Source: an uncultured Erysipelotrichales bacterium | GTDB lineage: Bacteria; Bacillota_I; Bacilli_A; Erysipelotrichales; CAZWEF01 | Length of the DNA stretch: 15,727 bases | Direction: 5' to 3' | Assembly (NCBI GenBank): GCA_964632125.1 | Contig: CAZWEF010000040.1 | Span: 1-15,727, forward strand | Shown here: piece after piece, positions 256 to 15,727 of the stretch | How positions within the stretch are numbered: position 1 is the first letter of the stretch | Layout: each line of letters opens with the position of its first letter | Position numbers and translations under genes: made by a program | The notes under the pieces: generated by a model | Database searches by the model: none | The model's input: the letters and a program-made list of their open reading frames with translations, nothing else | Told to the model about the DNA's origin: nothing

Positions 256-261
256 AAACTA

Positions 262-678: not shown

Positions 679-690
679 ATAAACACCTCC

Positions 691-716
691 ATTATAGTTA
701 GTATACTAACTATAAT
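691..716. promoter_or_regulatory. 26-bp perfect palindrome (ATTATAGTTAGTA|TACTAACTATAAT), candidate MarR operator overlapping the marR promoter region
   Basis: Exact reverse-complement symmetry over 26 bp, checked base by base. It lies 13 bp upstream of the MarR start codon in the divergent intergenic region. Each half contains a TATAAT-like hexamer. Confidence 0.6.
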
Positions 717-761
717 TATAAAAGTCAAAATAAATATTAGTTCGATATAAAACTTTTTTTG

Positions 762-790
762 TTGACTTATAAGAAGGTGTGTTGTAATAT
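762..790 (+). promoter_or_regulatory. Sigma-A-type promoter for the ABC transporter operon (-35 TTGACT, 17-nt spacer, -10 TAATAT)
   Basis: TTGACT at 762-767, a 17-nt spacer, then TAATAT at 785-790, about 35 nt upstream of the ATG at 826. Flanked by a 9-bp inverted repeat: ATTAGTTCG at 736-744 and CGAACTAAT at 801-809. Confidence 0.5.
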
Positions 791-825
791 AGTTCTATAA
801 CGAACTAATATAAAGGAGAATCAAC

Positions 826-2745
826 ATGTCATTTATTGAAATTAATCATTTAAAAAAGAGTTACAAAATATCAAAAGACTATAAACAGGAAGTATTTAAT
901 GATTTTAATCTATCTTTTAATACATCAGGACTTGTTGCAATCATTGGTGAAAGTGGATGTGGGAAAAGCACCTTGATGAATATTATTGGAGGTATGGATA
1001 GTGATTATGAAGGAGATGTCTTAGTTAATCAAAAGAAATTGAAAGAACAAAATCTAGACAACTATAGAAAGAATGTGCTAGGGTTTATTTTTCAATCGTT
1101 TAACTTAATTCCTACACTAACTGTTTTAGAGAACATTGAAATTGCGATGGATCTAACTGGTAAAAGTAAGATTGAAAAACGAGAAATTGCAGTATCAATG
1201 CTTGAAAAAGTAGGGCTTAAAGATCACATGCTTAAAAGACCAACACAGCTTTCAGGTGGTCAAAAACAACGTGTTGCGATTGCTAGAAGTCTTGTGAATG
1301 ATCCTCAAATTATTTTAGCGGATGAACCAACAGGGGCTTTAGATAAACAAACATCACAAGAGATTATGGATTTACTTAAATCGATTGCAAGTGAGGGTAA
1401 ACTGATCATCATTGTAACACACTCTGAACGTGTTTCTAAAGAATGTGATCGTGTTATTGCAATTGATGATGGCAAGATAGTGAGTGATGTTGTCAACAAC
1501 AAAGATACGAGTCACATTGTCTTAGAAGAAAAGAAAAACAAAGGGCTATCCTTCTTATCTGCTATCAAACATTCATTTAAAAATGTTATGAGAAATAAGA
1601 AAAGAAATTTACTTGTATCAATCGGAGGATCAATTGGTATACTGAGCGTGGTACTGATTCTTGGACTAGGAAGTGGGGTTAAAACGTATTTGTATAATGA
1701 GCTTATTGGTAATACGGATACATTAAATGTGACCGCAACCAAAGGAAGTTCCTTTGGACCTACTGGGGGAACGGTTGATCAATCTTCATTACAGTTTAGT
1801 CAAAGTGAGATCGAGGCGTTAATAGCTTTAAATGGCGTTTCTAGTTATACAACAAATTCGACTATTCAAGGCAATTCAATCTTAAAATCTGATCGTGAGA
1901 CGATATCACTCATGATGGTGACTTCAGACTTGAGTCAAGCGCAAGAAGTTGTCGTGGGGAAATTACCTGAAGATGGAGAAATCGTGTTAACTGAATCAAC
2001 GGCAACAAAATTAGTTGGTGATGCATCACAAATTAATCAACTCATTGGTAGTGAGGTTGCTCTAACTCTAAGTGGTGTTGATGGTGTCAAAGAAACCTTA
2101 ACGATTAGTGGCATTGTTCGACCTAACTCTGTCATTTTAGAGAACATATCAACGATTATGATGAATGATACAACCATGAGAAGTATTTATGAAAATAACG
2201 GTAAAACCTATAATCCGACATCAGTTGTATTACATGCCAAGGATGAAAATGCTGCCATTGAACTAGCGAGTCAAATCAAGTCAATGGGTTATCATGGATC
2301 AACTCAAGAAGAAACAATCAAGACGATGAATGACTATATATCGATTGCAACATTGATTCTTTCAGGAATTGCAGGTATTTCATTATTGGTTTCATCGATT
2401 ATGATCCTTGTTGTCATGTATATCAGCGTTGTTGAAAGAACCAAAGAAATTGGTGTCTTAAGAGCAATTGGTGCAAGACGTAAAGATATTAGAACCATTT
2501 TTATTGGTGAGGCAGGTATCATCGGATTCATTAGTGGTGCAATTGGTGTGTGTGGCGCATGCATTCTGGCACTGCTCATCAATTTATCACTTAAACAAAT
2601 GATTGGCATCAATATCATCAGTATTAATATTGTCTATGTCTTAGTAGGTATTTTACTGTCAATTGTTGTCAGTGTGATTGCTGGATATAAACCTGCAGCA
2701 AAAGCAGTAAAATTAGATCCAATTGAATCTCTGCGATATGAATAA
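826..2745 (+). CDS. Fused ABC transporter: N-terminal ATPase plus C-terminal MacB/FtsX-type permease with a large extracytoplasmic domain
   Basis: Walker A GESGCGKST, ABC signature LSGGQKQR, Walker B IILADEPT, H-loop VTHS. TM1 is around LLVSIGGSIGILSVVLILGL, followed by a roughly 230-aa extracytoplasmic region, then three C-terminal TM helices typical of the FtsX/MacB fold. RBS AAAGGAG. Confidence 0.9.
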   Translation: MSFIEINHLKKSYKISKDYKQEVFNDFNLSFNTSGLVAIIGESGCGKSTLMNIIGGMDSDYEGDVLVNQKKLKEQNLDNYRKNVLGFIFQSFNLIPTLTVLENIEIAMDLTGKSKIEKREIAVSMLEKVGLKDHMLKRPTQLSGGQKQRVAIARSLVNDPQIILADEPTGALDKQTSQEIMDLLKSIASEGKLIIIVTHSERVSKECDRVIAIDDGKIVSDVVNNKDTSHIVLEEKKNKGLSFLSAIKHSFKNVMRNKKRNLLVSIGGSIGILSVVLILGLGSGVKTYLYNELIGNTDTLNVTATKGSSFGPTGGTVDQSSLQFSQSEIEALIALNGVSSYTTNSTIQGNSILKSDRETISLMMVTSDLSQAQEVVVGKLPEDGEIVLTESTATKLVGDASQINQLIGSEVALTLSGVDGVKETLTISGIVRPNSVILENISTIMMNDTTMRSIYENNGKTYNPTSVVLHAKDENAAIELASQIKSMGYHGSTQEETIKTMNDYISIATLILSGIAGISLLVSSIMILVVMYISVVERTKEIGVLRAIGARRKDIRTIFIGEAGIIGFISGAIGVCGACILALLINLSLKQMIGINIISINIVYVLVGILLSIVVSVIAGYKPAAKAVKLDPIESLRYE

Positions 2746-2779
2746 TTGTGGTATAATATAAGCGAACTGAGGTGATTCT

Positions 2780-3274
2780 ATGCAAAATGGCATGATGGAT
2801 ATGGGTGCATTAATTATGATTGCATCATTAAAACAAAAAAAAATAATCAATAAGATCATTGTTGAACAAGGCTACAGTTTTGAATTAGCACATCTTAAAA
2901 TTTTAATGGCTGCAGTTCACTATCCTGGAAAACTATATGCAAAGGATTTGGTAGCCATTGAAGGCAAATCTAAATCAACGATTAATGCATTATTAGTCAA
3001 ATTAGAATCCGAAAATCTAGTATCATTAGAAGTTGATGAACTTGACAAGCGTGCCAAGATTATTAAGGCCACCAAAAAAGGGATACTCGTTGATAAAGAA
3101 TTATCAATCAAAGTTCAAGAAATTGTGTCATCAAAATTCATGAAAGACATGAGCCCAAATGAAATAGAATCTTTCATAAAAACAATCAAAAAACTCATTA
3201 AAAACATTGATGAAGTGATAGGTGAAGATGCACTACCATATGCTGATCTAGTACATGAAGTAAACAATCAATAA
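2780..3274 (+). CDS. Second MarR-family regulator, co-transcribed downstream of the ABC transporter
   Basis: 164 aa. MarR-like wing DELDKRAKIIKATKKG. GAGGTGA RBS sits 4 nt before the ATG. The gene starts 35 nt after the ABC stop and is followed by a terminator. Confidence 0.65.
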   Translation: MQNGMMDMGALIMIASLKQKKIINKIIVEQGYSFELAHLKILMAAVHYPGKLYAKDLVAIEGKSKSTINALLVKLESENLVSLEVDELDKRAKIIKATKKGILVDKELSIKVQEIVSSKFMKDMSPNEIESFIKTIKKLIKNIDEVIGEDALPYADLVHEVNNQ

Positions 3275-3286
3275 ATCATTCTATTT

Positions 3287-3320
3287 AAAACCCCGAACTG
3301 AACATGAGTCGGGGTTTATT
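3287..3320 (+). terminator. Rho-independent terminator of the ABC-MarR transcription unit
   Basis: AAAA-CCCCGA(A)CT-GAACATG-AGTCGGGG-TTTATT. An 8-bp GC-rich stem with one bulge, followed by a T-rich tract. Confidence 0.7.
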
Positions 3321-3536
3321 AAGTGTATGACACTACTTAAATACTCAGTGATTAGCCAATTCATGTATTATTCAACGTCATAAATTGCTCATGCACTAGC
3401 CCCAATACAAAATACTAAAGAAATATTAGCATTCAATTAAATCAATCATTTAAATGAATTAGAACTTACTATAAACCTTAATGATGAAAAAGATGACTGT
3501 GCTACATTCACCTCATTTATTTGGATTTTAAACACT

Positions 3537-3562
3537 AAAAGGAACCAAAATTGGTTCCTTTA
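3537..3562 (-). terminator. groEL terminator (hairpin GGAACC-AAAATT-GGTTCC flanked by A/T runs; potentially bidirectional)
   Basis: A perfect 6-8 bp stem lies 9 nt downstream of the groEL stop on the minus strand, followed by TTTTAGTGTTT in the minus sense. A T-run also follows on the + strand. Confidence 0.7.
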
Positions 3563-3570
3563 TTTGATAT

Positions 3571-5109
3571 TTAAGATTCCTTACCATCTACAATTGCGAC
3601 ACTTGTCATTAAAATTAGTCTTGCAATTGAGCTAGCATTTTCCAACGCAATTCGAATATTTTTTACAGGGTCGATAATACCTGCGCAGATTAAATCTTTA
3701 AACGTTCCGTCGATTGCATCATAACCTAATTGACACTCTTTTTCTAAAACTTTTTCTAAAATTATGTCTCCATTATCACCACTATTTATTGCAATTTGTT
3801 TTAAAGGATTCTCTATTGCTTTTTTGACAATCTCAAAACCTAGTTTCTCTTCTTCATTTTCGAAATCAACTTTAACCTTTTGCATTGCTTGAAGTAATGC
3901 AAGACCACCACCTGAAACAATACCCTCATCCATAGCAGCTTTAGTTGATTGCAATGCATCTTGTACCCTTGCTTTCTTTTCCTTAACTTCTGACTCAGTA
4001 CTTGCACCAACTTTAATGACACCAATACCGCCTACAAGTTTTGCGATTTGCTGTTCTTTATCTTGACGATCACTTTGTTTTAACTCTTCAACATATTCTA
4101 GCAATGCATCACTTTTTTCAACGATAATAATCGTTTGATTTTTCCTTATTTCAAAACGATCTGCACTTCCTAAACTTTCTAAGGTAATCGTTTTTATGTC
4201 TGTATTTTTTTCAATGATTTGACAATTTAGTAACATACTCAAGTCTTTTAACTCTCTATCTTTACTTTCACCAAACCCAGGAGCTTTAACCAAAGTAATG
4301 TTTAAAATGCCACGTAGACGGTTCATCACAATTGTTGTAATGACGTCTTCACTAAAATCATCAGCAATCATGATGAGCTCTCTATTTGTTTCCATTACTT
4401 TTTCTAACAATGGTAATACTTCATGAATGTGATTAATTTTTTCTTTAAAAAGTGCAACATATGGATTATTTACAATAGCAACCATACTCTTTTTGTCTGT
4501 AACCATATAAGGCGAAGCATAACCGTTGTTAAAATGATATCCATTCACTACTTCTACAGTTGTATCAAAACTCTTGCCTTCTTCTACTGTAACAACACCA
4601 TCTTTTGTTGCTTTATCTATTGCATCAGAAATAATTTTACCAATCTCTTCATCTTTGGCACTCACTGCTGCAATATTTTTAACTTCTATACTATTGCAAA
4701 CTGGCTTTGATAACTCTTTTAGGGCTTTTACTAGAGCTTTTGTTGTTTTATCAATACCTATATTTATACTTCTAGGATTTACACCATTATTTACATATTT
4801 TAGACCTTGATTCAAGATACTTTGAGTTAGGATAGTGGCAGTTGTAGTACCATCACCACTTAATTCTTCTGTCTTAGAAGAAGCTTCTTTGATTAGTTTT
4901 GCACCCATATTTTCAAACTTATCTTCTAATTCAATTTCTCTAGCAATCGTTACCCCATCATTTGTTATAAGCGGGGAACCATATGGTTTATCAATAACAA
5001 CATATTTTCCCTTTGGACCTAATGTTTCTTTTACAGCATCTGCAAGTTTATTAACGCCATCTTGTAACTTTTTACGTGATAATTCATTCGCTAAAATTTC
5101 TTTACTCAT
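3571..5109 (-). CDS. groEL: Chaperonin GroEL (Cpn60), short form lacking the C-terminal Gly-Met tail
   Basis: The N-terminus LADAVKETLGPKGKYVVIDKPYGSPLITNDGVTIAREIELEDKFENMGAKL closely parallels canonical GroEL (VKVTLGPKGRNVVL...SPxITxDGVTIAKEIELED.FENMGAQ). 512 aa. Ends ...VAIVDGKES without GGM repeats. Confidence 0.95.
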   Translation of the reverse strand: MSKEILANELSRKKLQDGVNKLADAVKETLGPKGKYVVIDKPYGSPLITNDGVTIAREIELEDKFENMGAKLIKEASSKTEELSGDGTTTATILTQSILNQGLKYVNNGVNPRSINIGIDKTTKALVKALKELSKPVCNSIEVKNIAAVSAKDEEIGKIISDAIDKATKDGVVTVEEGKSFDTTVEVVNGYHFNNGYASPYMVTDKKSMVAIVNNPYVALFKEKINHIHEVLPLLEKVMETNRELIMIADDFSEDVITTIVMNRLRGILNITLVKAPGFGESKDRELKDLSMLLNCQIIEKNTDIKTITLESLGSADRFEIRKNQTIIIVEKSDALLEYVEELKQSDRQDKEQQIAKLVGGIGVIKVGASTESEVKEKKARVQDALQSTKAAMDEGIVSGGGLALLQAMQKVKVDFENEEEKLGFEIVKKAIENPLKQIAINSGDNGDIILEKVLEKECQLGYDAIDGTFKDLICAGIIDPVKNIRIALENASSIARLILMTSVAIVDGKES

Positions 5110-5133
5110 AATATCAACTCCTTTTAAAACATT

Positions 5134-5391
5134 TTATTCTACGATTGCAAGAACATCATCTTCACTTAAAATTAAATAGTCTTGCTGTTCATGTGAAATA
5201 TTTTTTGTTTTGTAGGATTCAAAGATTACTTTATTTCCTTTTTTAATTTCTGTTACATCTTCTCCAACATCTATCACCAATGCAACATTTTTTTCATCAC
5301 TTTTACTTTCAGATAAGATAATTCCTGATTTCGAGATGTTTTCAATTTTTACTTTTTCCAACAATAAATATTTCTTAACAGGTTTAATCAT
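5134..5391 (-). CDS. groES: Co-chaperonin GroES (Cpn10)
   Basis: The RBS-supported start (AAAGGATGA then ATG) gives MIKPVKKYLLLEKVKIE...GIILSE..., about 85 aa. The ORF-track start at 5433 lies inside the CIRCE/promoter region and is rejected. The gene sits 25 nt upstream of groEL. Confidence 0.85.
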   Translation of the reverse strand: MIKPVKKYLLLEKVKIENISKSGIILSESKSDEKNVALVIDVGEDVTEIKKGNKVIFESYKTKNISHEQQDYLILSEDDVLAIVE

Positions 5392-5413
5392 AAAATCATC
5401 CTTTCTAGTTTTA

Positions 5414-5440
5414 TTAGCACTCATTATACCCAAGTGCTAA
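5414..5440. promoter_or_regulatory. CIRCE element (HrcA operator): TTAGCACTT-N9-GAGTGCTAA
   Basis: Minus-sense sequence TTAGCACTTGGGTATAATGAGTGCTAA matches the CIRCE consensus TTAGCACTC-N9-GAGTGCTAA in 17 of 18 positions. It lies between the groES promoter -10 element and the groES RBS. Confidence 0.9.
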
Positions 5441-5444
5441 TACT

Positions 5445-5473
5445 ATTTTAAAAAATAGTTACTTATTTGTCAA
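5445..5473 (-). promoter_or_regulatory. groESL sigma-A promoter (-35 TTGACA, 17-nt spacer, -10 TAAAAT)
   Basis: In minus-strand sense: TTGACA-aataagtaactattttt-TAAAAT. It sits immediately upstream of CIRCE. Confidence 0.65.
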
Positions 5474-5584
5474 GCGTTTAAACACACATATAAGCAAAGT
5501 TATAAAAAGATTTAAAATTAAAATCGTATCAAATGCCTCAATAAGCATACAAAGCACATACTAGAAGAAAATATTCTTAAGCGA

Positions 5585-6454
5585 CTAAATCGCTTTAAAT
5601 TCTGATGCTTCTTTCTTTAAATAATCACTAAATGAATCAATCCATTCATGAGCATAAGGACTTAAATAACGATTCTTATGAACAATAAAATAAAATGGTT
5701 TATGCAAATCAATGTCTAATTCATGAATCATAAACATGTCATGAGGAATGAGTTTTTTTGGTAAAATAGAAATACCTATCGCTTCTTTAACAAGTTCAAT
5801 GATGGCTTGAGAATTAGCACTTTCTATGATGGGTTGGTAAAAAAGATGTTGGTTTTTAAAATGATAATCAATGATGGCTCTAGTACCGCTTGAAGTATCG
5901 CGAAGAATTAAAGGATATGAAACTAAATCATGAAAACTAAGTTGCTTATTTAAGTGACTTTTTTTTGATGAAAAGACTACCAATTCTTCACTTGCAATCC
6001 CTTGTACAAGGAGATCTTTATCATGGATAGGTGTTTCAATGAAACCAAAATCTAAAGATCCATTCATTACTTGATGAATGATGTTTTGAGAATTATCAAT
6101 ATGTGTCATTAATTGATGATGATGATGCTTTAAATAGGTGGGTAAATAAGCAGTCCCAATGGTTAAACTAAATCCTATTTTTAGACTATGGGCTTGATGC
6201 TCTTCTTTTAAAACATTTTTGGTTGTTTCAAGCAATGTCATGATACTTAATAGTTGTTCATATAAATAATTACCTTGACTAGTTAGTTCAAGCTTCTTTT
6301 TCATGCGATGAAATAATTTGACATCGTAATAGTTCTCTAATTCTTTAATGGCAAGTGATACAGATGGCTGTGCAATCATCAATTGACTTGCAGCTTTGGT
6401 CATACTTTGTTGTTTCACAACCTCTATAAAGATATGAAAATGTCTTAGTGTCAT
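5585..6454 (-). CDS. LysR-family transcriptional regulator, divergent from the chromate transporter pair
   Basis: N-terminal HTH MTLRHFHIFIEVVKQQSMTKAASQLMIAQPSVSLAIKELE is the LysR signature. A GGAGGA RBS 5 nt upstream supports the start at the second ATG (6454) rather than the ORF-track start at 6466. About 289 aa with a C-terminal co-inducer-binding domain. Confidence 0.9.
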   Translation of the reverse strand: MTLRHFHIFIEVVKQQSMTKAASQLMIAQPSVSLAIKELENYYDVKLFHRMKKKLELTSQGNYLYEQLLSIMTLLETTKNVLKEEHQAHSLKIGFSLTIGTAYLPTYLKHHHHQLMTHIDNSQNIIHQVMNGSLDFGFIETPIHDKDLLVQGIASEELVVFSSKKSHLNKQLSFHDLVSYPLILRDTSSGTRAIIDYHFKNQHLFYQPIIESANSQAIIELVKEAIGISILPKKLIPHDMFMIHELDIDLHKPFYFIVHKNRYLSPYAHEWIDSFSDYLKKEASEFKAI

Positions 6455-6549
6455 GTTATCCTCCATAATTAATTTATTATAATGTATATACTAAATATAG
6501 TATTTTACTTATATATTGTCAAGATGTATACTATAAGAGAGGTGAATCA

Positions 6550-7119
6550 ATGAAACCATTTAAACATCATTTAAAACTATTTAAAGAAACACTTTTAATC
6601 AGTGCTTTTACCTTTGGTGGTGGGTATGTCATTGTCCCATTACTTAAAAAAAGATTTGTGGATGAACTTCATTGGATTGAAGAAGAAGAAATGATTGATT
6701 TGGTGGCCATCGCACAATCATCCCCAGGTCCTTTAGCCATCAATGCATCAATCATGATTGGCTATAAATTGAGTGGGTTAAAAGGCGCTCTTGTAGCAAC
6801 ACTTGGTACATCTTTACCACCACTCGTCATCATTTCGCTCATTTCTATGTTCTATGATTTTTTTCAAAGCAATAAGATTATTTCAACCATGATGATTGGC
6901 ATGCAAGCAGCAGTAGCCGCTATTATATTGAATGTTTGTCTCACGATGTTCCAACAAGTAACAAAAACCAATACCCTAAGAAATATCGTATTATTTATCA
7001 TTGCTTTTGTTGCGAGTTATGTTTTTAAAATCAATGTGATGCTAGTCATCATTGTCTTTGCATTGGTTGGTTTGATGTTGATGTTTTATGAAAGGGGGAA
7101 GAAGCATGATCTATCTTGA
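6550..7119 (+). CDS. chrA: Chromate-transporter (CHR) family short-chain subunit 1
   Basis: 189 aa, multi-TM. Carries the CHR signature FTFGGGYVIVPLL. It is paired with a second half-size CHR gene, as in Bacillus ywrB/ywrA-type short-chain CHR (SCHR) pairs. Confidence 0.85.
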   Translation: MKPFKHHLKLFKETLLISAFTFGGGYVIVPLLKKRFVDELHWIEEEEMIDLVAIAQSSPGPLAINASIMIGYKLSGLKGALVATLGTSLPPLVIISLISMFYDFFQSNKIISTMMIGMQAAVAAIILNVCLTMFQQVTKTNTLRNIVLFIIAFVASYVFKINVMLVIIVFALVGLMLMFYERGKKHDLS

Positions 7120-7663
7120 ACTCTTTATTAGCTTCTTTAAAGTGGGTTTATTTAGTATTGGTGGTGGGTACGCATCATTACCACTCATCCAAAATGAAGT
7201 GGTGGTCAATCATGCTTGGCTATCACTTAAAACATTTACTGATGTCATTACCATTGCAGAAATGACCCCAGGACCAATAGCACTTAATGCAGCAACTTTT
7301 GTTGGAACCAAAGTTGCAGGAACATCAGGTTCAATTGTCGCAACAATAGGTGTTATTTTACCATCCTTTTTAATCTTATCTTTACTTAGTTATTTATACT
7401 TCAAATATCAAAATTTAGATGCCATTCAAGGGATGCTACAGGGCATAAGGCCAACAGTTGTAGCACTTATTTTTGGTGCAGGTTTATCCATTCTCATGCT
7501 TTCACTCTTTGGCCATTCAAAAAACTTGGTGCTAAGTGAATTAAACTATCTTCATGTTGTATTTGTTGCTTTAGCATTGTTTTTAGTAAGAAAGATGAAA
7601 CTAAGTCCTATAATTGTGATGTTATGCATAGGTTTGTTAAATGTTTTAATGACGATGATTTAA
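7106..7663 (+). CDS. chrA: Chromate-transporter (CHR) family short-chain subunit 2
   Basis: CHR signature FSIGGGYASLPLI. The AAGGGGG RBS supports the start at 7106 (MIYLELF...). It overlaps the upstream partner by 14 nt, indicating translational coupling. Confidence 0.85.
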   Translation: MIYLELFISFFKVGLFSIGGGYASLPLIQNEVVVNHAWLSLKTFTDVITIAEMTPGPIALNAATFVGTKVAGTSGSIVATIGVILPSFLILSLLSYLYFKYQNLDAIQGMLQGIRPTVVALIFGAGLSILMLSLFGHSKNLVLSELNYLHVVFVALALFLVRKMKLSPIIVMLCIGLLNVLMTMI

Positions 7664-7930
7664 TCAATTGATCGTGCTAAAAAGTCTTCTTATTAACATA
7701 GAAGCGATGCTTGTTCAACATCTTTTTATAAACAAATGACGTATAAACACGATGACCATGATCACATTTATTCATTTGAATGCCAATTTCTATATGAAGT
7801 TGTCCTATCAAAAGACCATTATTTGGTAGAAAAAAGGTTTATAGAGGACCACTTCTTGAATGTACTGAAACAAACATGACATTGTTTATGATTTATAAAC
7901 TATGTATAATAAGGATGTGGGGTGATTCTA

Positions 7931-9162
7931 TGAGTGACTATCAAGAACAAATCAAAAAGTTTGATAAAGTAAGAGACTACATACATTCTTTTTACTTATA
8001 TGGCTATAACACACGAGGACAATTCAATGTTAGGAGTACAAGAAGCTACGATAATGAAAAAAGAAGAATAGAAAGTTATTTAGCTGAATACATAACCTAT
8101 ACTAAAGATGAACGAGGTAAACAAATAGCGATTGAAGCAGATTGTGCTACTTTAGATACGAATCCACTTTATCGCGCTTTTAAAGCGAAAAGCTTTACTA
8201 AAAATGATATATCATTGCATTTTTATATCTTTGATTTACTCAAAGAATACCAAGCTTTAAGTGCACCTGAACTCATGATGAAAATGGATGAACATTATAC
8301 AAACTATTTTAATCAACCTATGCTACTAGATTTATCAACTATTAGAAAAAAACTTAATGAGTATGAGTCACTTGGTCTTCTATCAAGTAACAAACAAGGA
8401 AAAAAAGTTGTTTATTCAATCACCAAAGATACGATTGATTTAAATACTGTTCATGACAGCTTATGTTTCTTTTCAGAAGTTTCACCACTAGGTGTTGTTG
8501 GTAACTACTTACTTGATAAGATTGGTAAACAAAATGATGTATTCCGATTTAAACACCACTATATTATGCATGCATTAGAAAGTGAAGTTGTATTAAGTTT
8601 GGTTCAAGCAATGAACCAGAAAAAGAAAATTCGAATTGATGTTCGAAAAAACAGTCAAACAAGTGACATATATGGTGTTCCAATTAAGATATTGATTAGT
8701 GTTCAAACAGGTAGACGCTATTTGTGTTTGTATTACAATAGCCGATTCAGAAACATACGACTCGATCATGTAAAACACGTGACACTCATGAATGAAGTGA
8801 GTCATTATGAAGCCATTCATCTTCGCTATCAGCAATTAGAAGCATTTACTTGGGGTAGTTCATATGGTGATCAAAAAAAGCTTGAACATTTGTCTATTCG
8901 ACTTGCGATTTCTTTTGAAGAGCGCTATATCATCAATCGTATTGAAAATGAAGGAAGACATGGTGTTTTAACCTTTGTTGAAGAAGGTGTGTATCAATAC
9001 GACATTGATGTTTATGATACGATGGAAATGTTGCCTTGGATTCGCACATTCATTGGTAGAATCATTCAACTAGAAGGAACCAACACCCATGTAATCAGTT
9101 TGTTTTATGATGATTTAAATCGAATGTTGGCGATGTATGGCGGTGATCAAGATGTTGTTTAG
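7931..9162 (+). CDS. WYL-domain transcriptional regulator (N-terminal extension, wHTH, WYL, C-terminal extension), first of a tandem pair
   Basis: The RBS GGGGTGA-4nt-ATG supports the start MSDYQEQ.... A winged-HTH-like segment LSAPELMMKMDE...LSTIRKKLNEYESLGLLSSNKQGKKVVYSI resembles HTH_11/DeoR. The WYL-domain pattern KKIRIDVRKNSQTSDIYGVPIKILISVQTGRRYLCLYYNSRFRNIRLDHVKHVTL matches the consensus (i.i.Y....r.v.P..l....WYL......r.FRldRI) with RYL in place of WYL. Confidence 0.7.
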
Positions 9163-10057
9163 TGAAGTTTACAGTGTCTATTACAAGGTGATGGAACACT
9201 TGATTGAGTTATCTCAAACACAACAATTAAATGACCAAATCATGAAAGAAGTGATTGAGAATAATGCTTTTCAAGAAAGTTTTTGGTTTATTTCGAGTTC
9301 AATTAAACAAGAAGAATGGGCACTGATTACAAAAGACTTTCAAACACCACTGCTTCATCAACCCCATCTACCACTAACTGACATCCAGCGTGCTTTTTTA
9401 AAATCAATGTTTTTAGATCAACGTATACAACTATTTATTGATATGCCTAGTTCACTCATAGATGTAGAGCCACTCTATAATCCAAACATGTTTTATACAA
9501 TGGATGTATTTAAAAATGGGGATCCTTACAGTGACCCTCAATACATTGCACACTTTAAAATTATTTTAGAAGCAGTAAAACATTCTAAAGCAATCAAAAT
9601 GATTTATACAAGTGGTAAAGACAAGCGAATCGAAGGTATCTATTTTCCTGATAAGATTGAGTATTCAGCTAAAGAAGATCGTTTTCGTATTTTATGTAAA
9701 AGGCAACACAAAGAATATATCTTCAATATTGCAAGGATTGAATCATTAGTCATAACAAAAGATGTTTATAAACATACTACTTTAATTAAACGTCAACAAG
9801 CATGGATTGAACTTGAGTTGAAAGATTATCGTAATGCATTAGAACGTTTACTCACATCATTTGCTAACTACAAAAAAGAAACAAAACAAATAGATTCACT
9901 AACCTATCGTATTTTGATTACGTATTTTCAATCGGATGAAACCGAACTCTTGATTCGTATTCTATCATTTGGTCCAATGATTAAAGTCTTGGGTCCTGAC
10001 ACGTTTATTCATCAACTAAAAAATCGAATTCATAAACAAATAAAGTTGTGTAACTAA
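9152..10057 (+). CDS. Second WYL-domain protein, overlapping the first by 11 nt; PafC-like partner without a clearly recognisable HTH
   Basis: WYL-domain pattern AIKMIYTSGKDKRIEGIYFPDKIEYSAKEDRFRILCKRQHKEYIFNIARIESLVI matches the consensus (Y....R..P......Y......R.F...RI). RBS GGTGA-5nt-ATG sits at 9152; the ORF-track start at 9137 has no RBS. The stop is embedded in a terminator stem. Confidence 0.6.
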   Translation: MLFSEVYSVYYKVMEHLIELSQTQQLNDQIMKEVIENNAFQESFWFISSSIKQEEWALITKDFQTPLLHQPHLPLTDIQRAFLKSMFLDQRIQLFIDMPSSLIDVEPLYNPNMFYTMDVFKNGDPYSDPQYIAHFKIILEAVKHSKAIKMIYTSGKDKRIEGIYFPDKIEYSAKEDRFRILCKRQHKEYIFNIARIESLVITKDVYKHTTLIKRQQAWIELELKDYRNALERLLTSFANYKKETKQIDSLTYRILITYFQSDETELLIRILSFGPMIKVLGPDTFIHQLKNRIHKQIKLCN

Positions 10058-10077
10058 ATCAGTTCGCAACTTTTTTT
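10042..10077 (+). terminator. Rho-independent terminator closing the WYL gene pair
   Basis: AAAGTTGTG...CGCAACTTT forms a 9-bp stem (one G.U pair) and is followed by TTTTTTT at 10071-10077. Confidence 0.75.
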
Positions 10078-10094
10078 CCACGATAAATCATGTG

Positions 10095-10215
10095 CTATAG
10101 GCTATGATGTAGACACAAGGAAGTTTTGCTTGATGCAAATGTGGTGCCAAAGGTATACCAAATGGTATTCCATCATCCTTGTTTCGCAGGTTCGAGTCCT
10201 GCATGAACCTTTTAA
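10095..10215 (+). ncRNA. Candidate tRNA-like / Y-RNA-like small RNA with a canonical tRNA T-arm; boundaries approximate
   Basis: Positions 10186-10202 read GCAGG-TTCGAGT-CCTGC, a perfect 5-bp stem closing the 7-nt T-loop consensus (T-psi-C-R-A-N-N) found in bona fide tRNAs. Upstream hairpins are TTTGC-TTGAT-GCAAA (10125-10139) and ATACC-AAAT-GGTAT (10155-10168). A long-range pairing joins ATGATG (10104-10109) with CATCAT (10171-10176). The alternative outer helix AGGTTC...GAACCT plus TTTT (10188-10214) can act as an intrinsic 3' end. No complete cloverleaf (acceptor or anticodon arm) could be folded by eye. Confidence 0.4.
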
Positions 10216-10410
10216 GTTCAATTTGGTAAATAAAATAGAAAGTAAAAACAAATGATTCAGACTTGTTCAAATTAAATGATGACCTTGTCCTTGATGGATA
10301 CCGCTCTTAGACTACTTATGCCAAAGTTTACTTCCGAATAAGTACGATAATAACTTAAATCAATGCCGTCATCGTTTAATGAATCATTTAAAACAAAGGA
10401 GGAAATGAAC

Positions 10411-11505
10411 ATGAAAAAAATGATAAAAGAAAATCAAAAAGGATTACTATATCGATATGGAAAACTAACCAAAGTCTTAAACCCTGGTCTTCATAACTAC
10501 TACTTAAGTGGCTACACAGTTGAAGTCATGAATGTTTTTGAACCGTTTAGAAGTGAAACTTTACCTGTAGAAATTGCCATGAACCATGAATTACTAAAAA
10601 GTGAATTAGAATGTATTCAAGTATCGGATGAAATGGTTGTCCTTCATTATATCAATGATCAATTTGCTGCATGTTTAACTAAAGGAACTTATGCATTCTT
10701 TAAAGCTTATCAAAACCATCAATTTCTTACAATATCAATACGAGATAACTATGTAAGTGATGACATGCCAAAACATGTATTTGAATCCATTCCACATGAT
10801 TTGTATCGTCATGAAATCATTGCTGAGTATCAAAAGGGTATTGTAATCATCAATGGTAAAATTGAACGCGTATTAGATAAAGGTCACCATTATTTTTGGC
10901 TTAACCATAATGACTTGGAAATAGTCATCGTTGATACGCGTCTAAAACAAATGGAACTTGTTGGACAAGAACTATTAACACTTGATAAAGTGGCACTTCG
11001 TATTAACTTTGTCTGTCGTTATAAAATTATTGACTACGTTAAACTAGTGACAGAGGTAGAGGACTTTGAAAACATGATGCATGTTACACTGCAACTGGCA
11101 TTAAGAGCGTATGTTGGTAAGTATCGCTTGGATGAAATACTTGAAAACAAAGAAGGTATTGCTTTATATGCTTTTGAAAAACTAAAAGAAAAAGAAGCAT
11201 CATTATATATGCATGTTGAAGATGCTGGAGTAAAAGACATTATCTTACCAGGTGAAATAAGAGAAATCATGAACACTGTATTGATTGCAGAAAAGAAAGC
11301 ACAAGCGAATGTGATCACAAGACGTGAAGAAGTTGCATCAACAAGAAGTTTACTTAATACCGCGAAGTTAATGGATGAAAACAAAACACTGTATAAATTA
11401 AAAGAACTTGAATACGTAGAACGTATTTGTCAAAATGTTAGAGAAATCAATGTTGGAACCCAAAATGATATTCTTACGACAATGACTTCATTATTAAAGG
11501 GGTGA
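10411..11505 (+). CDS. SPFH/band-7 (stomatin/prohibitin-like) domain protein, apparently cytoplasmic (no N-terminal TM helix)
   Basis: The AAGGAGG RBS lies 8 nt before the ATG at 10411 and supports MKKMIKENQKGLLYRYGKLTKVLNPGLHNYYL.... This is the SPFH N-terminal signature (v..ge.gvv.rfGk.....pGlhf..P). A C-terminal coiled-coil-like segment reads ...IAEKKAQANVITRREEVASTRSLLNTAKLMDE. The ORF-track start at 10363 is rejected. Confidence 0.7.
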   Translation: MKKMIKENQKGLLYRYGKLTKVLNPGLHNYYLSGYTVEVMNVFEPFRSETLPVEIAMNHELLKSELECIQVSDEMVVLHYINDQFAACLTKGTYAFFKAYQNHQFLTISIRDNYVSDDMPKHVFESIPHDLYRHEIIAEYQKGIVIINGKIERVLDKGHHYFWLNHNDLEIVIVDTRLKQMELVGQELLTLDKVALRINFVCRYKIIDYVKLVTEVEDFENMMHVTLQLALRAYVGKYRLDEILENKEGIALYAFEKLKEKEASLYMHVEDAGVKDIILPGEIREIMNTVLIAEKKAQANVITRREEVASTRSLLNTAKLMDENKTLYKLKELEYVERICQNVREINVGTQNDILTTMTSLLKG

Positions 11506-11509
11506 AACA

Positions 11510-12280
11510 ATGAAGGAACGTATCCTTGAAGCATTAAAAGAAGTTGAACAAACATATGATGTCAAAGTACTGTTCGCAGTAGAATCAGGAAGCAGAGCTT
11601 GGGGCTTTGCTTCACCTGATAGTGATTATGATGTGCGCTTTGTGTATGTTCATAAATTAAATCATTATCTAAGAGTCGACAAAACTAGAGATGTCATAGA
11701 GCTTCCTATTGCTGATGATTTAGACATCAATGGTTGGGATTTAAAGAAGGCAATGAAACTTATGAGTACATCAAATCCAACCTTATACGAATGGTTAGAC
11801 TCACCAATTGTTTACATGTCTACACCTGAGTTCGAGGTATTAAAGCATAAGCGTTTAGACTTTTATCAACAAAAACCTGGTCTGTACCATTACTTAAATT
11901 ACGCTTATAATAACTATAAACATAATCAAAAACAGGACATGATTAAAGTAAAGCAATACTTTTATGTCTTAAGACCAATCTTAGCATGTCAATGGATCCT
12001 ATCTAATCAAACGCCACCTCCTGTACCATTTGAGCAACTTGTTGAAACAATGTTAGATGAAGATATGAAAGATGTAGTGCGACAATTGATTGTCCTTAAA
12101 ACAAGTAGTATAGAATCGCAATGGATTAAAAGACTTGAGCATATAGATCAGTACATAAATAATCAGTTAACAACATTAAAACAAATAGTTAATGATTTAA
12201 ATTACGTGGAAGTCAACCACAAAGAAGCAATAAATCAATTGTTTCTAGAACTTTTACAAAGGAGAGATGAAGATGATTGA
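11510..12280 (+). CDS. Pol-beta-superfamily minimal nucleotidyltransferase (COG3541-like, the RtcB-associated NTase family)
   Basis: N-terminal motif VLFAVESGSRAWGFASPDSDYDVRFVY is the hG[GS]x9-13DhD nucleotidyltransferase signature. A C-terminal helical domain follows. The gene starts 5 nt after the SPFH stop and overlaps rtcB by 14 nt. Confidence 0.8.
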   Translation: MKERILEALKEVEQTYDVKVLFAVESGSRAWGFASPDSDYDVRFVYVHKLNHYLRVDKTRDVIELPIADDLDINGWDLKKAMKLMSTSNPTLYEWLDSPIVYMSTPEFEVLKHKRLDFYQQKPGLYHYLNYAYNNYKHNQKQDMIKVKQYFYVLRPILACQWILSNQTPPPVPFEQLVETMLDEDMKDVVRQLIVLKTSSIESQWIKRLEHIDQYINNQLTTLKQIVNDLNYVEVNHKEAINQLFLELLQRRDEDD

Positions 12281-13493
12281 AATAAAAGGGAAGTATGCAA
12301 CTGCTCAAATATACTCAAATTTAGTTGATGAACTAGCAATCAAACAACTTCAATTGTTGATTGATCAACCACTATCAAAGGATGCTAAAATTAGAATTAT
12401 GCCAGATGTTCATGCAGGTGCGGGATGCGTGATTGGGTTTACTGCAAACATTCAGGATGTTGTTATTCCAAACATTGTGGGCGTTGATATAGGGTGTGGT
12501 ATGTTGACAATCATGCTCGGACAAAAGAGAATTGATTTAGATAAGCTAGATGCGATTATTCACCAATACATACCAAGTGGGAGAGATGTACATGTGCATC
12601 CATTAGCGAAAGTTGATTTATTATCAAATATTCGATGCTTACCGTATCTAAAGAATGAAAAACGATTTAGTCAAAGTATGGGAACACTTGGTGGGGGTAA
12701 TCATTTCATTGAAGTAAATGTTGATGATGAAGGCAATCATTATTTGGTTATCCATACAGGAAGTCGAAATTTAGGGAAACAAGTAGCTGATTACTATCAA
12801 CATTTAGCAATTGATCAACTAAGTGGTAAAAGTAATTACAAACAAGACTTAAACAATCTCATCGCCGGTTATAAACAACAAAATAAAGAACATTTATTGG
12901 AACAAGCCATTCAAGATTTAAAAGCAGAATATGAGCTTAAAATGGTGAAACACCCAGAGCTTAGCTACTTAACTGGTCAAGGTAAAGCCGATTATTTAAA
13001 TGATATGGGGCTCTGTCAGCAATTTGCAACCCGTAATCGTGAAAAGATTGCTTCAATCATACTTAACCATCTGTTTGAAAAATCTTTGCATGACTTTGAT
13101 TGTTTTGAAACTGTGCATAATTATATTGATTTGACGACAAACATGATACGAAAGGGCGCTGTATCAGCTCAACTAAACGAAATGATCTTGATTCCGATGA
13201 ACATGAGAGACGGAAGTTTACTATGTCTTGGTAAAGGCAATGAGGATTGGAATTGTTCTGCACCTCATGGAGCAGGTAGATTGTATAGTAGGATACAAGC
13301 AAAGAAACAGTTTACATTAGATGAGTATGCTTTGTCAATGAAAGGCATTTATTCGTCAACAATCAACAATCAAACACTAGATGAATGCCCAATGGCTTAT
13401 AAAGATATGAAAGATATTGTCACTAGAATTGAACCAACCGCGACCATTCTTAAAGTGCTAAAACCAATCTATAATTTCAAAGCATCTGACTAA
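12267..13493 (+). CDS. rtcB: RNA 3'-phosphate/2',3'-cyclic phosphate to 5'-OH RNA ligase RtcB
   Basis: 408 aa with all RtcB hallmark metal/GMP-binding motifs in order: MPDVHAGAGCVIGFT, GVDIGCGM, GGGNHFIEV, IHTGSRNLG, ETVHNYID, CSAPHGAGR (the GMP-histidine motif). The start overlaps the NTase stop, indicating translational coupling. Confidence 0.9.
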   Translation: MKMIEIKGKYATAQIYSNLVDELAIKQLQLLIDQPLSKDAKIRIMPDVHAGAGCVIGFTANIQDVVIPNIVGVDIGCGMLTIMLGQKRIDLDKLDAIIHQYIPSGRDVHVHPLAKVDLLSNIRCLPYLKNEKRFSQSMGTLGGGNHFIEVNVDDEGNHYLVIHTGSRNLGKQVADYYQHLAIDQLSGKSNYKQDLNNLIAGYKQQNKEHLLEQAIQDLKAEYELKMVKHPELSYLTGQGKADYLNDMGLCQQFATRNREKIASIILNHLFEKSLHDFDCFETVHNYIDLTTNMIRKGAVSAQLNEMILIPMNMRDGSLLCLGKGNEDWNCSAPHGAGRLYSRIQAKKQFTLDEYALSMKGIYSSTINNQTLDECPMAYKDMKDIVTRIEPTATILKVLKPIYNFKASD

Positions 13494-13514
13494 ACAGTGT
13501 GAACCACTGTTTTT
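13493..13514. terminator. Bidirectional terminator hairpin shared by the convergent rtcB and nudix genes
   Basis: AACAGTG-TGAAC-CACTGTT is a 7-bp stem, followed by TTT on the + strand. It overlaps both stop codons. Confidence 0.6.
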
Positions 13515-14037
13515 AGTCATCATGTTTGTGACAACCATAAAACTTCCTACTATCAAAAAAAAGCTGTATTAGACTTTTATGGTATGGGATAAAGGTACCA
13601 GCATCAATCATTGCAATGATTGTTTCAACACTTGCCCATTTAACTTGTTGAACTTCTTCGTATTGTAATTGTAACTGTTCAATATTAACATCATGTTCAA
13701 TTAAATAAATATCATCAAATCCAACATCAAAATTAATGGTTAAGTGAGGACGAACTTGCTTCAATTCTATCTCCAATCCGATTTCTTCACTTATTTCTCT
13801 TTGAATAGCTTGTTGACTCGTTTCCCCTTCAATCGCGCTACCACCAACTGATATATCCCACATGTTTGGCCAACCTTTTTTGAATGGTTGTCTTTGTTGA
13901 ATCAACATATCATTATTTGAGTTAAACACACAAGCATGAACAACTAAGTGGTATGCGTCTTTATCAAATGGTTGACCGCTCATCATTGTTTTCCCACTTT
14001 TTGTCCGATCATTGTTATAAACATCCCAAAGTTCCAT
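13513..14037 (-). CDS. Nudix hydrolase
   Basis: Nudix box GGSAIEGETSQQAIQREISEEIGLEI matches GX5EX7REUXEEXGU. 174 aa. AAGGA RBS. Confidence 0.85.
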   Translation of the reverse strand: MELWDVYNNDRTKSGKTMMSGQPFDKDAYHLVVHACVFNSNNDMLIQQRQPFKKGWPNMWDISVGGSAIEGETSQQAIQREISEEIGLEIELKQVRPHLTINFDVGFDDIYLIEHDVNIEQLQLQYEEVQQVKWASVETIIAMIDAGTFIPYHKSLIQLFFDSRKFYGCHKHDD

Positions 14038-14233
14038 CTAATCCATCCTTTCTTTTGGTTCAAAAAACCCCCTATATAAAAGGTCACATAGGGGTTATAT
14101 TACACATTTAAGGATAACATATATTTTTCAGTCATACAAACAATTACTTACTATCAATTTAAGTACAATTGTAAGCATTTCTTATTTACTAGATGAAAGA
14201 AGTAGGTTAGTATTATTGAAATCTATAAAGGGC

Positions 14234-14253
14234 ATGGACTTTTAAAAGTCCAT
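14234..14253. promoter_or_regulatory. 20-bp perfect palindrome ATGGACTTTT|AAAAGTCCAT, candidate operator at the -35 region of the surface-protein promoter
   Basis: Exact reverse-complement symmetry. It ends 7 bp upstream of an extended -10 (TGtTAAAAT at 14260-14268). The ATG lies at 14314 with RBS AAGGAAGGTGA. Confidence 0.5.
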
Positions 14254-14313
14254 AAAATGTGTTAAAATAGGGAAGGATATTTTAAAAAATAATAAAATAA
14301 GGAAGGTGATAAA

Positions 14314-15727
14314 ATGTTTAACAAGCAAAAAATTTGTTTACTAAGCGTAGTTTCGAGCTTGTTTATAATCAATTCATTTCAAACAATAAACGCTGTTAGG
14401 ATCGAAAAAAACACACCACACCACACAGTTGGCACTTTATTTACGCCAAAGGCGATTGTCAATACGACGATTGGTGGTATTGTTTATGAATTAGATGATA
14501 CAACATTAACTGCAAAAACGGTTGCCTACTCAGGCGTGTCTAGAGACATTGTTATTCCATCTTCTGTTCGTTACAATAATGTTGATTACAGTGTAAAAGA
14601 AGTTAGATTTTCAAGTTTCTATAACAAAAACTTAAGAACAGTTGTTGTGTCAGAAGGCATTACGACAATAGGAAATGATGCATTTGCTTTTAATGCATTA
14701 GAAAAAATAACACTCCCATCGACATTAACATCCATTGGGAACTATGCATTTGCGATTAATCAGTTAAAAAGTATAGAAATTCCAGAAAACCTTGTAAAAA
14801 TAGGTGACTATTCTTTTGCAGCCAATAAATTAGAAAACGTAGTCATCAAAAGTAACTTGTCAATGGTTGGTAAAAATGTGTTTTCAAATAGCCCACTTAC
14901 ACAGATTTTTTTATCGGACATTTCAACTGCACAAAGTCTCATCAATGCATTAAATGCAAATGCGATGCAAGGGATTACTGTTGCGACTACCTCTTTGTAT
15001 GCACTAAATAATGTATCCATTGATTATATAGAAGGTACGCTTGATTACTATGATTTGGCATATAACCAAACTCAAGAACTTGTTGTAAACACATATATTC
15101 CAGAAATTAAACGGTATAGTCAAGATGAAGATACGTGGTTGGATTTAATCGATAATCCGATTAGCCTAACCAATCAAGACATTAAATGGATCAATCAAAG
15201 TAACGAAATTGTTGGCACTGGGTATCGTTACATCGTAGTTGAATCTGGCGTTTACCATGCATTAGTTAATGATGCCGTTAAATTAAATGATATCACAGTT
15301 CAAATAAAAGCAAATGAATATACGGTTATATTTGATGCACAAGGGGGAATACCAACCCCACCAAATCAAACAGTTGTGGTTGGAGAGAGAATTGTTGAAC
15401 CAATCACACCAGAAAGGCTTGGGTATACATTAAAAAGCTGGAATACCACAAAAGATGGCAGTGGGGAGAATTGGGATTTCAATACCAATACAATGCCAGC
15501 AAATGATGTGACGTTATATGCCCAGTGGCATATTAATCAATATCATTTGTATTATGATTTGAATGGGGGAGAAGGAACTGATCCACAAACCCAAGACATT
15601 GAGTACGGTGCACTAATAAGTGAACCTAATACACCACAAAGAATTGGATATACATTTAGTGGTTGGAATACCACAAAAGATGGCAGTGGGGAGAATTGGG
15701 ATTTCAATACCAATACAATGCCAGCAA
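14314..15727 (+). CDS. Partial (3'-truncated by the window) secreted cell-surface protein with a signal peptide, BspA-type leucine-rich repeats and Listeria-Bacteroides repeat domains
   Basis: The N-terminus MFNKQKICLLSVVSSLFIINSFQTINA is signal-peptide-like. About 22-aa LRRs run in tandem (ITTIGNDAFAFNALEKITLPSTLTSIGNYAFAINQLKSIEIPENLVKIGDYSFAANKLENVVI). At least two roughly 75-aa repeats have the Listeria-Bacteroides pattern (Y.V.FD..GG......V..G..I.EP..P.R.GYTF.GWNT..DGSG..WDF.T..MPANDVTLYAQW). The frame is open to the window end. It is absent from the ORF track because no stop codon falls in the window. Confidence 0.8.
   Translation, partial: MFNKQKICLLSVVSSLFIINSFQTINAVRIEKNTPHHTVGTLFTPKAIVNTTIGGIVYELDDTTLTAKTVAYSGVSRDIVIPSSVRYNNVDYSVKEVRFSSFYNKNLRTVVVSEGITTIGNDAFAFNALEKITLPSTLTSIGNYAFAINQLKSIEIPENLVKIGDYSFAANKLENVVIKSNLSMVGKNVFSNSPLTQIFLSDISTAQSLINALNANAMQGITVATTSLYALNNVSIDYIEGTLDYYDLAYNQTQELVVNTYIPEIKRYSQDEDTWLDLIDNPISLTNQDIKWINQSNEIVGTGYRYIVVESGVYHALVNDAVKLNDITVQIKANEYTVIFDAQGGIPTPPNQTVVVGERIVEPITPERLGYTLKSWNTTKDGSGENWDFNTNTMPANDVTLYAQWHINQYHLYYDLNGGEGTDPQTQDIEYGALISEPNTPQRIGYTFSGWNTTKDGSGENWDFNTNTMPA
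15439..15502 (+). repeat. 64-nt perfect direct repeat, copy 1 (intragenic, 225-nt period, one 75-aa Listeria-Bacteroides repeat unit)
   Basis: TGGAATACCACAAAAGATGGCAGTGGGGAGAATTGGGATTTCAATACCAATACAATGCCAGCAA is identical at 15439-15502 and 15664-15727, including the wobble positions. Confidence 0.9.
15664..15727 (+). repeat. 64-nt perfect direct repeat, copy 2 (runs to the window edge and may continue beyond it)
   Basis: Identical to 15439-15502. The flanking repeat-unit sequence has diverged at both nucleotide and protein level. Confidence 0.9.

Follow-up and report, generated by a model that had tools for sequence, protein, structure and literature searches.

We analysed a 15,727-nt stretch of DNA from an uncultured Erysipelotrichales bacterium (assembly GCA_964632125.1, contig CAZWEF010000040.1, positions 1 to 15,727; hereafter the window), in which a large spacer separates two WYL regulator genes from an RNA repair operon. 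Gene order on the + strand is WYL1, WYL2, the spacer, and the genes for an SPFH/Band-7 protein, the nucleotidyltransferase RlaP and the RNA ligase RtcB (Table 1). Elsewhere the contig carries housekeeping genes (MarR, a MacB-type ABC transporter, groES/groEL, LysR and chromate transporters), with no integrase among the window open reading frames (ORFs) scanned. The SPFH gene probably starts at ATG 10411 rather than at the mechanical start at 10363, because its homolog consensus begins MKxIINENQ and a Shine-Dalgarno sequence (SD) is suitably placed at 10398-10402. With ATG 10411 as the real start, the spacer from WYL2 to the SPFH gene measures 353 nt, and the 3' domain of the RNA described below is entirely non-coding.

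A reading of this DNA from its letters alone (hereafter the sequence-only reading) had placed a perfect tRNA T-stem-loop on the operon strand of this spacer, and the arm is present exactly there. Its motif, GGTTCRANTCC, occurs once in the 15.7-kb window, with a chance expectation of 0.04 and at least one match in 7 of 200 shuffles, consistent with the claim that it was unlikely to have arisen by chance. The T-arm was also kept in related genomes, and this conservation puts it far beyond chance. Relatives were collected as 80 species-level loci through SPFH homolog alignment (Clostridia and Erysipelotrichaceae), and in 69 of these a T-loop motif precedes the SPFH match on the operon strand, at a distance of 240-430 nt (~930-990 nt in a few, where an extra ORF intervenes); most of the 11 motif-less loci are truncated contigs. 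The T-arm is the predicted core of a conserved, three-domain structured RNA of ~290 nt, which forms the 5' leader of the SPFH-RlaP-RtcB operon and stands before such a repair operon in many Clostridia of the gut. The element had been drawn at 10095-10215, but its actual span is much larger, from ~10114 to ~10390-10400.

Table 1. Coordinates of the leader RNA, its promoter region and the flanking genes in the window
Feature	Positions	Strand	Remarks
WYL1	7876-9162	+	PADLOC WYL model, E 4.5e-9; ortholog upstream in 57/80 loci
WYL2, WYL/WCX-type	9137-10057	+	PADLOC WYL model, E 4e-9; upstream in 62/80 loci
Left inverted-repeat arm AAAGTTGTGTAAC	10042-10054	+	Right arm 10062-10073; with T-run, a terminator-like hairpin for the WYL genes
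Promoter-upstream block GTTCGCAACTTTTTTTCC plus -35-like ACGATA	10062-10085	+	Block 10062-10079, ACGATA 10080-10085; candidate operator/UP element
-10 box TATGAT	10103-10108	+	24 nt after 'C(A/G)(C/T)GA' of the block, 6 nt before P1
5' domain, three-way junction	10114-10183	+	R3 match; P1, P2, P3
P1	10115-10121/10176-10182	+	Conserved long helix; in window minimum free energy fold
P2	10125-10129/10135-10139	+	Hairpin; in window minimum free energy fold
P3 GGTGC-CA-AA-GGTATACC-AAA-TG-GTATTCC	10143-10171	+	Covariance model alignment; fits family consensus
T-arm mimic	10186-10202	+	5-bp stem GCAGG (10186-10190)/CCTGC (10198-10202), loop TTCGAGT (10191-10197); R1 match 10182-10228
Closed acceptor-like hairpin (AS) TGAAC-CTTTTAA-GTTCA	10204-10220	+	Window minimum free energy fold; family parse; covariation
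D-arm-like hairpin ATTT-GGT-AAAT	10221-10231	+	Family consensus CCAG-yGGw-TTGG; 3/4 pairs covary
A-rich linker	10232-10266	+	In relatives, a short hairpin plus A-run
3' domain, nested rod	10267-10400	+	Pa 10272-10281/10370-10379; Pb 10290-10295/10359-10365; Pd/Pe hairpin 10314-10343
SPFH/Band-7 (slipin) protein	10411-11505	+	Pfam Band_7, E 4e-29; SD GGAGG 10398-10402
RlaP nucleotidyltransferase	11510-12280	+	Pfam PF10127, E 6e-84
RtcB RNA ligase	12267-13493	+	Pfam PF01139, E 1.6e-60

The 5' domain is a three-way junction in which P1 pairs the extreme 5' end (GCAAGG...) with the segment just 3' of GUAUGCC, and the two further hairpins and long-range pairing that the sequence-only reading had noticed upstream of the T-arm turned out to be P2, P3 and P1 of this junction. 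Independent single-sequence minimum free energy (MFE) folds gave the same three-way junction, including its 5' closing helix, in 46 of 48 relatives, and P1 itself is wholly different in sequence between lineages (GCAAGGUACCCUC/GAGGGUGGCUUGC, CAAAUCGUCUU/AAGAUGGUUUG and GUAAGGUGAAUU/AAUUUACUUUAC). Alignments of the 5' domain made with MAFFT only miss P1, whose 3' strand lies at a variable distance, and an unconstrained search for the best helix was too noisy; P1 was resolved by the per-sequence MFE folds plus a covariance model (CM). This model of the 5' domain (R3), with the window not in its seed, found the domain in 69 loci and matched window positions 10114-10183 with 19.4 bits and a within-window E of 0.002. 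In the corresponding CM-fitted alignment (A10), 90.3% of the cells were paired and 28 of 32 pairs were changed on both sides, compared with 34-50% paired cells in slid controls, and none of 500 shuffles equalled the observed value. The family consensus of P3 is GGUGC-[R..]-GGnnnnnCC-AAA-[..Y]-GUAUGCC. A loss of P3 from the window copy was considered and ruled out by the CM alignment, in which the P3 letters of the window match this consensus.

The T-arm opens the second domain, a compact tRNA-like module. Parsing of 65 family sequences placed the AS hairpin 3' of the T-arm after a linker of 0-2 nt, with 5-13 bp and free sequence variation, followed by the D-arm-like hairpin, and the base 5' of the T-stem was C in 51 of the 65, like C48 of tRNA. 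A CM built from 16 relatives, with the window excluded (R1), had its sole significant window match at 10182-10228 (21.2 bits, E 4.4e-5) and located the module in 62 of the 80 loci. In the CM-fitted alignment of the module (A5), 96.9% of the pair cells were paired (slid controls 29-50%; 0 of 500 shuffles reached the observed value) and 14 of 17 pairs were changed on both sides; compensatory changes were found in all 8 AS pairs of the family, and at two T-stem positions GC and AU pairs replace one another. The module is, judging by this comparative evidence, a putative mimic of the tRNA elbow in the permuted order T-arm, closed acceptor-like stem, D-arm.

Some relatives carry more than one T-loop. 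A second T-loop-like motif lies 10-70 nt upstream of the main one in 16 of 69 loci (among them L007, L013, L021, L022, L025, L026, L028, L039, L044, L046, L053, L058, L069, L070 and L079), and the window is without one. It is often part of an inserted module, TGGCAATCG-hairpin-CGAT-GGGGTTCAAmTCCCC, sometimes with an acceptor-like hairpin of its own. The linker that follows the module in the window (10232-10266) showed no conserved structure.

The 3' domain provided evidence for structure from a sequence-only alignment (MAFFT, 32 relatives; A6), in which it folds as a nested rod; 31 of its 35 pairs show compensatory changes. Pairing reached 91.3% of the cells against 36-46% in slid controls, a value that 0 of 500 shuffles attained. 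Conserved internal loops of the rod in the window are ACCTTGTC, GGATACCG (10296-10303), CTTAA and GCCG; those conserved in the family are GCCUUGCC, GGAUACCG, CCAAAAG...CUUUCCGC, CUYAA and GCCGC. The model of this domain (R2), built without the window, matched the window only at 10267-10400 (62.1 bits, E 3e-16). The window matches of R3, R1 and R2, each the best or only match of its model, are collinear on the + strand, and MFE folds of the window made domain by domain agree with the three domains (z = -1.9, -2.3 and -2.8). Covariation in the homologous intergenic regions, proposed earlier as a check on the element, was found as compensatory changes in all three domains.

Conservation of this RNA extended to its surroundings. 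The three domains are collinear, on the operon strand and upstream of the SPFH gene in 62-69 of the 80 species-level loci, and in the anchored sequences that were read, conservation covers the whole spacer from the promoter-like block to the ribosome-binding site. In searches of the 80 loci with the window proteins (tblastn), WYL1 was found in 57, WYL2 in 62, RtcB in 54 and RlaP in 6. A separate scan anchored on the RNA itself, using the 5'-domain pattern against metagenome contigs, returned 75 loci: the SPFH gene lay downstream on the same strand in 57 of 58 with enough downstream sequence, WYL2 lay upstream in 53 of 59 with enough upstream sequence, and the T-loop was present in all 70 that were long enough. 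About 140 copies of the RNA were collected in the family; cultivable carriers among them are Dielma fastidiosa JC13 (L008), Robinsoniella peoriensis (L012), Oscillibacter valericigenes Sjm18-20 (L055) and Hominibacterium faecale (L026). The WYL-WYL-RNA-SPFH-RtcB core is constant while the position of RlaP varies. The sequence-only reading had regarded a tRNA-like RNA beside these genes as an unusual arrangement; instead, the WYL-WYL-RNA-SPFH-(RlaP)-RtcB cassette is the rule in Clostridia and Erysipelotrichia, and such an RNA beside Band-7 and RtcB genes was already predicted in 2016 (b7a-tRNA, below).

Individual loci depart from this layout in several ways. In the window and L003, RlaP separates SPFH from RtcB; in L058 it immediately follows SPFH, and in L007, L008, L045 and L060 it follows RtcB. 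Seven loci have an extra ORF of ~200-215 amino acids between the RNA and the SPFH gene (L022, 2802-3449; L006, 3362-3970; and L004, L030, L037, L054 and L059), with a conserved C-terminus (ISYWNEFYRxDCYRYxDYxGK...FGYRKTGQKTI) and no Pfam match. A different gene lies upstream of the RNA in L146. In L081 (RNA match 2857-2887), a large ORF, by eye an IS66-type transposase, occupies the site of the P1 5' strand, and the RNA looks disrupted. In L101 (RNA match 1713-1743, - strand), the RNA breaks off just past the T-arm, and facing it is a tyrosine integrase gene (159-1589, + strand; Pfam Phage_integrase, E 1e-29); a mobile element looks to have used the T-arm as an attachment site, as real tRNA genes are used.

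The 5' boundary of the RNA is marked by a promoter-like region that overlaps the end of WYL2. The left arm of an inverted repeat lies within the 3' end of WYL2, whose stop codon TAA (10055-10057) falls in the repeat loop, and this arm was seen at loci where WYL2 ends directly upstream. The right arm belongs to a block, GTTCGCA[AG]CTTTTTTTC-CGTGA[AT]A, that is nearly invariant (57 of 70 loci) and is kept at loci without the left arm and at loci with divergent WYL genes (L075, L077). We considered the hairpin and its T-run as a plain terminator and rejected this, since the right arm is conserved even without the left arm or with divergent WYL genes; it is therefore primarily a promoter or operator element with a secondary terminator role. 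The same DNA (10042-10108) thus appears to double as terminator for the WYL genes and operator/UP element for the promoter of the RNA. In the window and in four relatives (counted by hand), the block is followed after 24 nt by a -10 box of the form TAnnnT, frequently accompanied by TG, the conserved GCAAGG of P1 starts 6 nt past the -10 box in the examples read, and a promoter scan of L017 gave GTGAAA-17-TAAAAT with TG. The RNA start is predicted ~6-8 nt past the conserved -10 box, from a promoter with a weak -35 element. The near-invariant upstream block is probably the site at which WYL1/WYL2 control this promoter, with GTTCGCARCTTTTTTTCCGTGA as the candidate target.

At the other end, conserved structure reaches to ~10 nt before the SD in the window, and the 3' domain ends ~10-30 nt before it. 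Scans of three leaders (window, L017 and L009) detected no + strand terminator that would separate the RNA from the SPFH gene, and RNA and repair proteins are therefore likely to be produced together. The sequence-only reading had ended the RNA at a stem (AGGTTC...GAACCT) followed by a T-run. The letters are indeed there (10188-10193 and 10205-10210, followed by TTT), but the stem competes with both the T-arm and AS, was not seen in the relatives read by eye, and as an RNA 3' end would conflict with two covarying helices. With no + strand terminator at this point and the conserved structure continuing far beyond it, the stem was rejected as a 3' end and read as a chance pairing.

The genes for WYL1 and WYL2 overlap by 26 nt (9137-9162), and their products are divergent, paralog-like partners conserved as a pair. 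Neither window protein gave a Pfam hit or a PDB sequence match; among 16 WYL2 orthologs, Pfam WCX was found in 10 and WYL in 4. This pair recalls PafBC, paired helix-turn-helix-WYL-WCX paralogs that, once a nucleic-acid ligand is bound, switch on damage-response promoters. The likeness lies in two adjoining, overlapping WYL/WCX paralog genes beside a stress-repair operon, with a weak -35 element and a conserved upstream motif; unlike PafBC, however, the window WYL sequences are very divergent, matching only the PADLOC WYL models (plus Pfam WCX/WYL in some orthologs), with no PDB match. The SPFH protein (closest relative ~57% identical) has ~150 residues N-terminal to Band_7 without a family assignment and no hydrophobic or transmembrane segment (maximum Kyte-Doolittle 19-residue mean of 0.9), which suggests a soluble scaffold and not a membrane protein. 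Among substrates, RlaP favours mimics of cleaved tRNA.

We compared the RNA with known tRNA-like RNAs. The earlier view that no full cloverleaf can be folded, and that this is not a canonical tRNA gene, held: ARAGORN found 0 tRNA or tmRNA genes in the window, the Rfam tRNA model did not match, and the acceptor-like helix is closed. In a scan with Rfam 15 models, which had been suggested as a check, no family reached its gathering score anywhere in the window or on the elements of 14 related loci, be it tRNA, tmRNA or Y RNA (Y RNA families being covered if Rfam holds any), and at E<=10 the region 9950-10450 gave only chance-level OmrA-B and Plastid-ycf2 hits and no tRNA match. What is shared with canonical tRNA is the T-arm with G53, T54, T55, C56, R57, A58 and C61, a stacked acceptor-like helix, a D-loop GG, and a C directly 5' of the T-stem equivalent to C48. 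In contrast to tRNA and tmRNA, the acceptor is loop-closed without free ends or CCA, there is no anticodon arm, the D-loop is only 3-6 nt, and ARAGORN and the Rfam tRNA/tmRNA models do not detect the RNA.

The closest design is that of YrlA, a bacterial Y RNA whose tRNA-like domain has the order V-T-AS-D, AS being conserved as a stem alone (Chen et al. 2014, PMC4201824). Both RNAs mimic the tRNA elbow with a permuted T-AS-D order in which T and D are conserved and AS varies in sequence, and both are encoded in or next to an rtcB operon, with which YrlA is co-transcribed. The sequence-only reading had suggested such a Y-RNA-like, tRNA-mimicking module on the operon strand beside RtcB, and the covarying T-AS-D order bears this out. 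It had also remarked on the lack of Rsr/Ro60, and a TROVE domain was indeed found in none of the window ORFs scanned, whereas YrlA is encoded beside rsr (Ro60, TROVE). The Rsr-binding motif of YrlA, GNCGAAN0-1G, was found neither at window positions 10109-10400 nor in the 5' portions of 68 related RNAs. In YrlA the 5' and 3' ends are brought together by a long helix that bears the Rsr site, whereas here P1 closes the 5' domain only and a separate 3' rod follows; the D-loop is also much shorter than in YrlA. The RNA is thus YrlA-like in design but fails YrlA membership, because there is no rsr gene, no GNCGAAN0-1G motif and no Rfam hit.

In 2016, Burroughs and Aravind reportedly proposed a scaffolding cofactor role for SPFH/Band-7 modules together with a new tRNA-like molecule. 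A later preprint attributes to the same authors (Nucleic Acids Res 2016;44:8525) the prediction of b7a-tRNA, a non-coding RNA encoded beside Band-7 and RtcB genes that is said to bear a strong likeness to a genuine tRNA and was unvalidated experimentally as of that preprint (Wang et al. 2018, bioRxiv 10.1101/312249). The RNA described here is likewise a tRNA-like predicted non-coding RNA by an SPFH gene and RtcB, and b7a-tRNA was proposed as the cognate RNA of an SPFH scaffold; by context and tRNA-likeness it is most probably a divergent member of this class, which we know by description only. Its tRNA-like part, however, is only ~50 nt of a three-domain RNA of ~290 nt. We found no experimental work on this RNA in the searchable literature, papers on RlaP, SPFH, WYL or RtcB included, and beyond the 2018 preprint no later paper there naming b7a-tRNA.

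Anatomy, conservation, covariation, strand, synteny and promoter geometry are read directly from these loci, and the following points weigh against the way we interpret them. The MFE of the whole spacer is no better than that of shuffles (z = -0.19), and therefore thermodynamics alone fails to reveal the RNA. Alignments A5 and A10 were fitted to covariance models and are biased towards the model structure. The window copy is the most divergent member of the family, with R1 and R3 scores lowest or near-lowest, and its D-stem, all A-U, is thermodynamically weak and missing from the MFE fold. Among the metagenome loci there is much redundancy, many being copies of one arrangement. Because b7a-tRNA is described as having a strong likeness to true tRNA and the module here is permuted, with no anticodon arm and a very short D-loop, its identity with that class is inferred from context. 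Finally, a 5' leader ending ~10-30 nt before the ribosome-binding site would fit a cis-regulatory role equally well.

Transcription, processing, protein partners and function of the RNA we infer by comparison with better known systems. The reading we favour, at a probability of roughly 55%, is that the leader is a Y-RNA-like cofactor co-transcribed with SPFH-RlaP-RtcB, and of the three alternatives offered by the sequence-only reading (a Y-RNA-like small RNA, a cis-acting leader sensed by the WYL regulators, or a tRNA-fragment attachment-site remnant) this would be the best. By analogy with Y RNA and Ro60 in the rsr-yrlBA-rtcBA operon, the leader would act as an RNA cofactor or scaffold, possibly after processing, with its tRNA-like elbow as the surface that contacts soluble SPFH protein and/or RtcB and RlaP, and this binding may organise or gate the repair of cleaved tRNA-like substrates. 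Less probable, though still to be given real weight, is a cis-regulatory leader: a structured 5' untranslated region that would control elongation, mRNA stability or translation of SPFH-RlaP-RtcB through a bound protein (for example SPFH, RtcB or a WYL protein) or a bound RNA, for example tRNA that is damaged or uncharged. The RNA sits constantly at the operon 5' end on the same strand, its 3' domain stops shortly before the SD, no terminator splits it from the first gene in the leaders scanned, and it keeps its 5' end position even where an extra ORF precedes SPFH, all of which such a leader would explain. Co-transcription cannot separate the two, because the Y RNAs of Salmonella are also co-transcribed within the rtc operon. 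What speaks somewhat against the leader is that simple scans of the window, L017 and L009, together with A6, gave no terminator/antiterminator pair or convincing SD-sequestering helix, and that its size (~290-400 nt), three autonomous domains and complete elbow mimic make the RNA more like a Y RNA than like known leaders.

Two further explanations seem much less likely. We consider it improbable that the module is a damage sensor or bait, cut by, or a decoy for, the anticodon or other tRNA nucleases that RtcB counters, with the fragments or the repair state feeding back on the WYL regulators or on operon translation. Such a role would suit the faithful mimicry of the elbow and the WYL genes adjoining the RNA (WYL2 in the 53 of 59 RNA-anchored loci given above), and in Proteobacteria RtcR is activated by damaged tRNAs, according to a published study (PMC7790460); yet the module has no equivalent of the 7-nt-loop anticodon arm, the usual target of anticodon nucleases, and RNA binding by these WYL proteins is hypothetical, as is the idea as a whole. 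A tRNA 3' part left as an integration scar or pseudogene where an SPFH-RlaP-RtcB module was inserted (or, as a variant, a chance motif) is very improbable, although nothing distinguishes the T-arm from that of a tRNA and an integrase-bearing element in L101 appears to have inserted right after it. The element occupies the same position and strand in ~70 species, the T-stem, the adjoining 3' hairpin and the D-arm show compensatory changes, as do the flanking domains, and what follows the T-arm is a closed hairpin rather than an acceptor 3' strand plus CCA; in the window, the context is housekeeping and no integrase was seen among the ORFs scanned. The attachment-site remnant of the sequence-only reading is thus rejected, given a covarying closed hairpin and D-arm that lie 3' of the T-arm and are conserved across ~60 species.

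A bolder proposal, which we regard as unlikely and put forward tentatively, is that the leader is an uncatalogued large non-coding RNA of ~290-400 nt whose elbow mimic works in a damage-sensing circuit as a self-encoded 'sentinel tRNA'. The soluble SPFH scaffold would bind the RNA, on tRNA cleavage by ribotoxins the RNA would come under attack or its repair enzymes would be tied up, and its intact, cleaved or RtcB-religated state would be read by the paired WYL regulators or would control translation of the operon.

The value of these results lies in a defined family, with boundaries, models and test organisms, and not in a new kind of system. For annotation, the family accounts for the large 'empty' spacer before numerous Clostridial rtcB operons; the SPFH start codon is revised as well. 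The family also provides material for an Rfam family, none of which exists in Rfam 15. With defined boundaries, three covarying domains, a predicted promoter/operator and cultivable carriers, it makes the 2016 hypothesis of 'SPFH + tRNA-like RNA' testable, and the RNA bears on the questions of what bacterial RtcB repairs and what roles SPFH/Ro60-type partners have in that repair.

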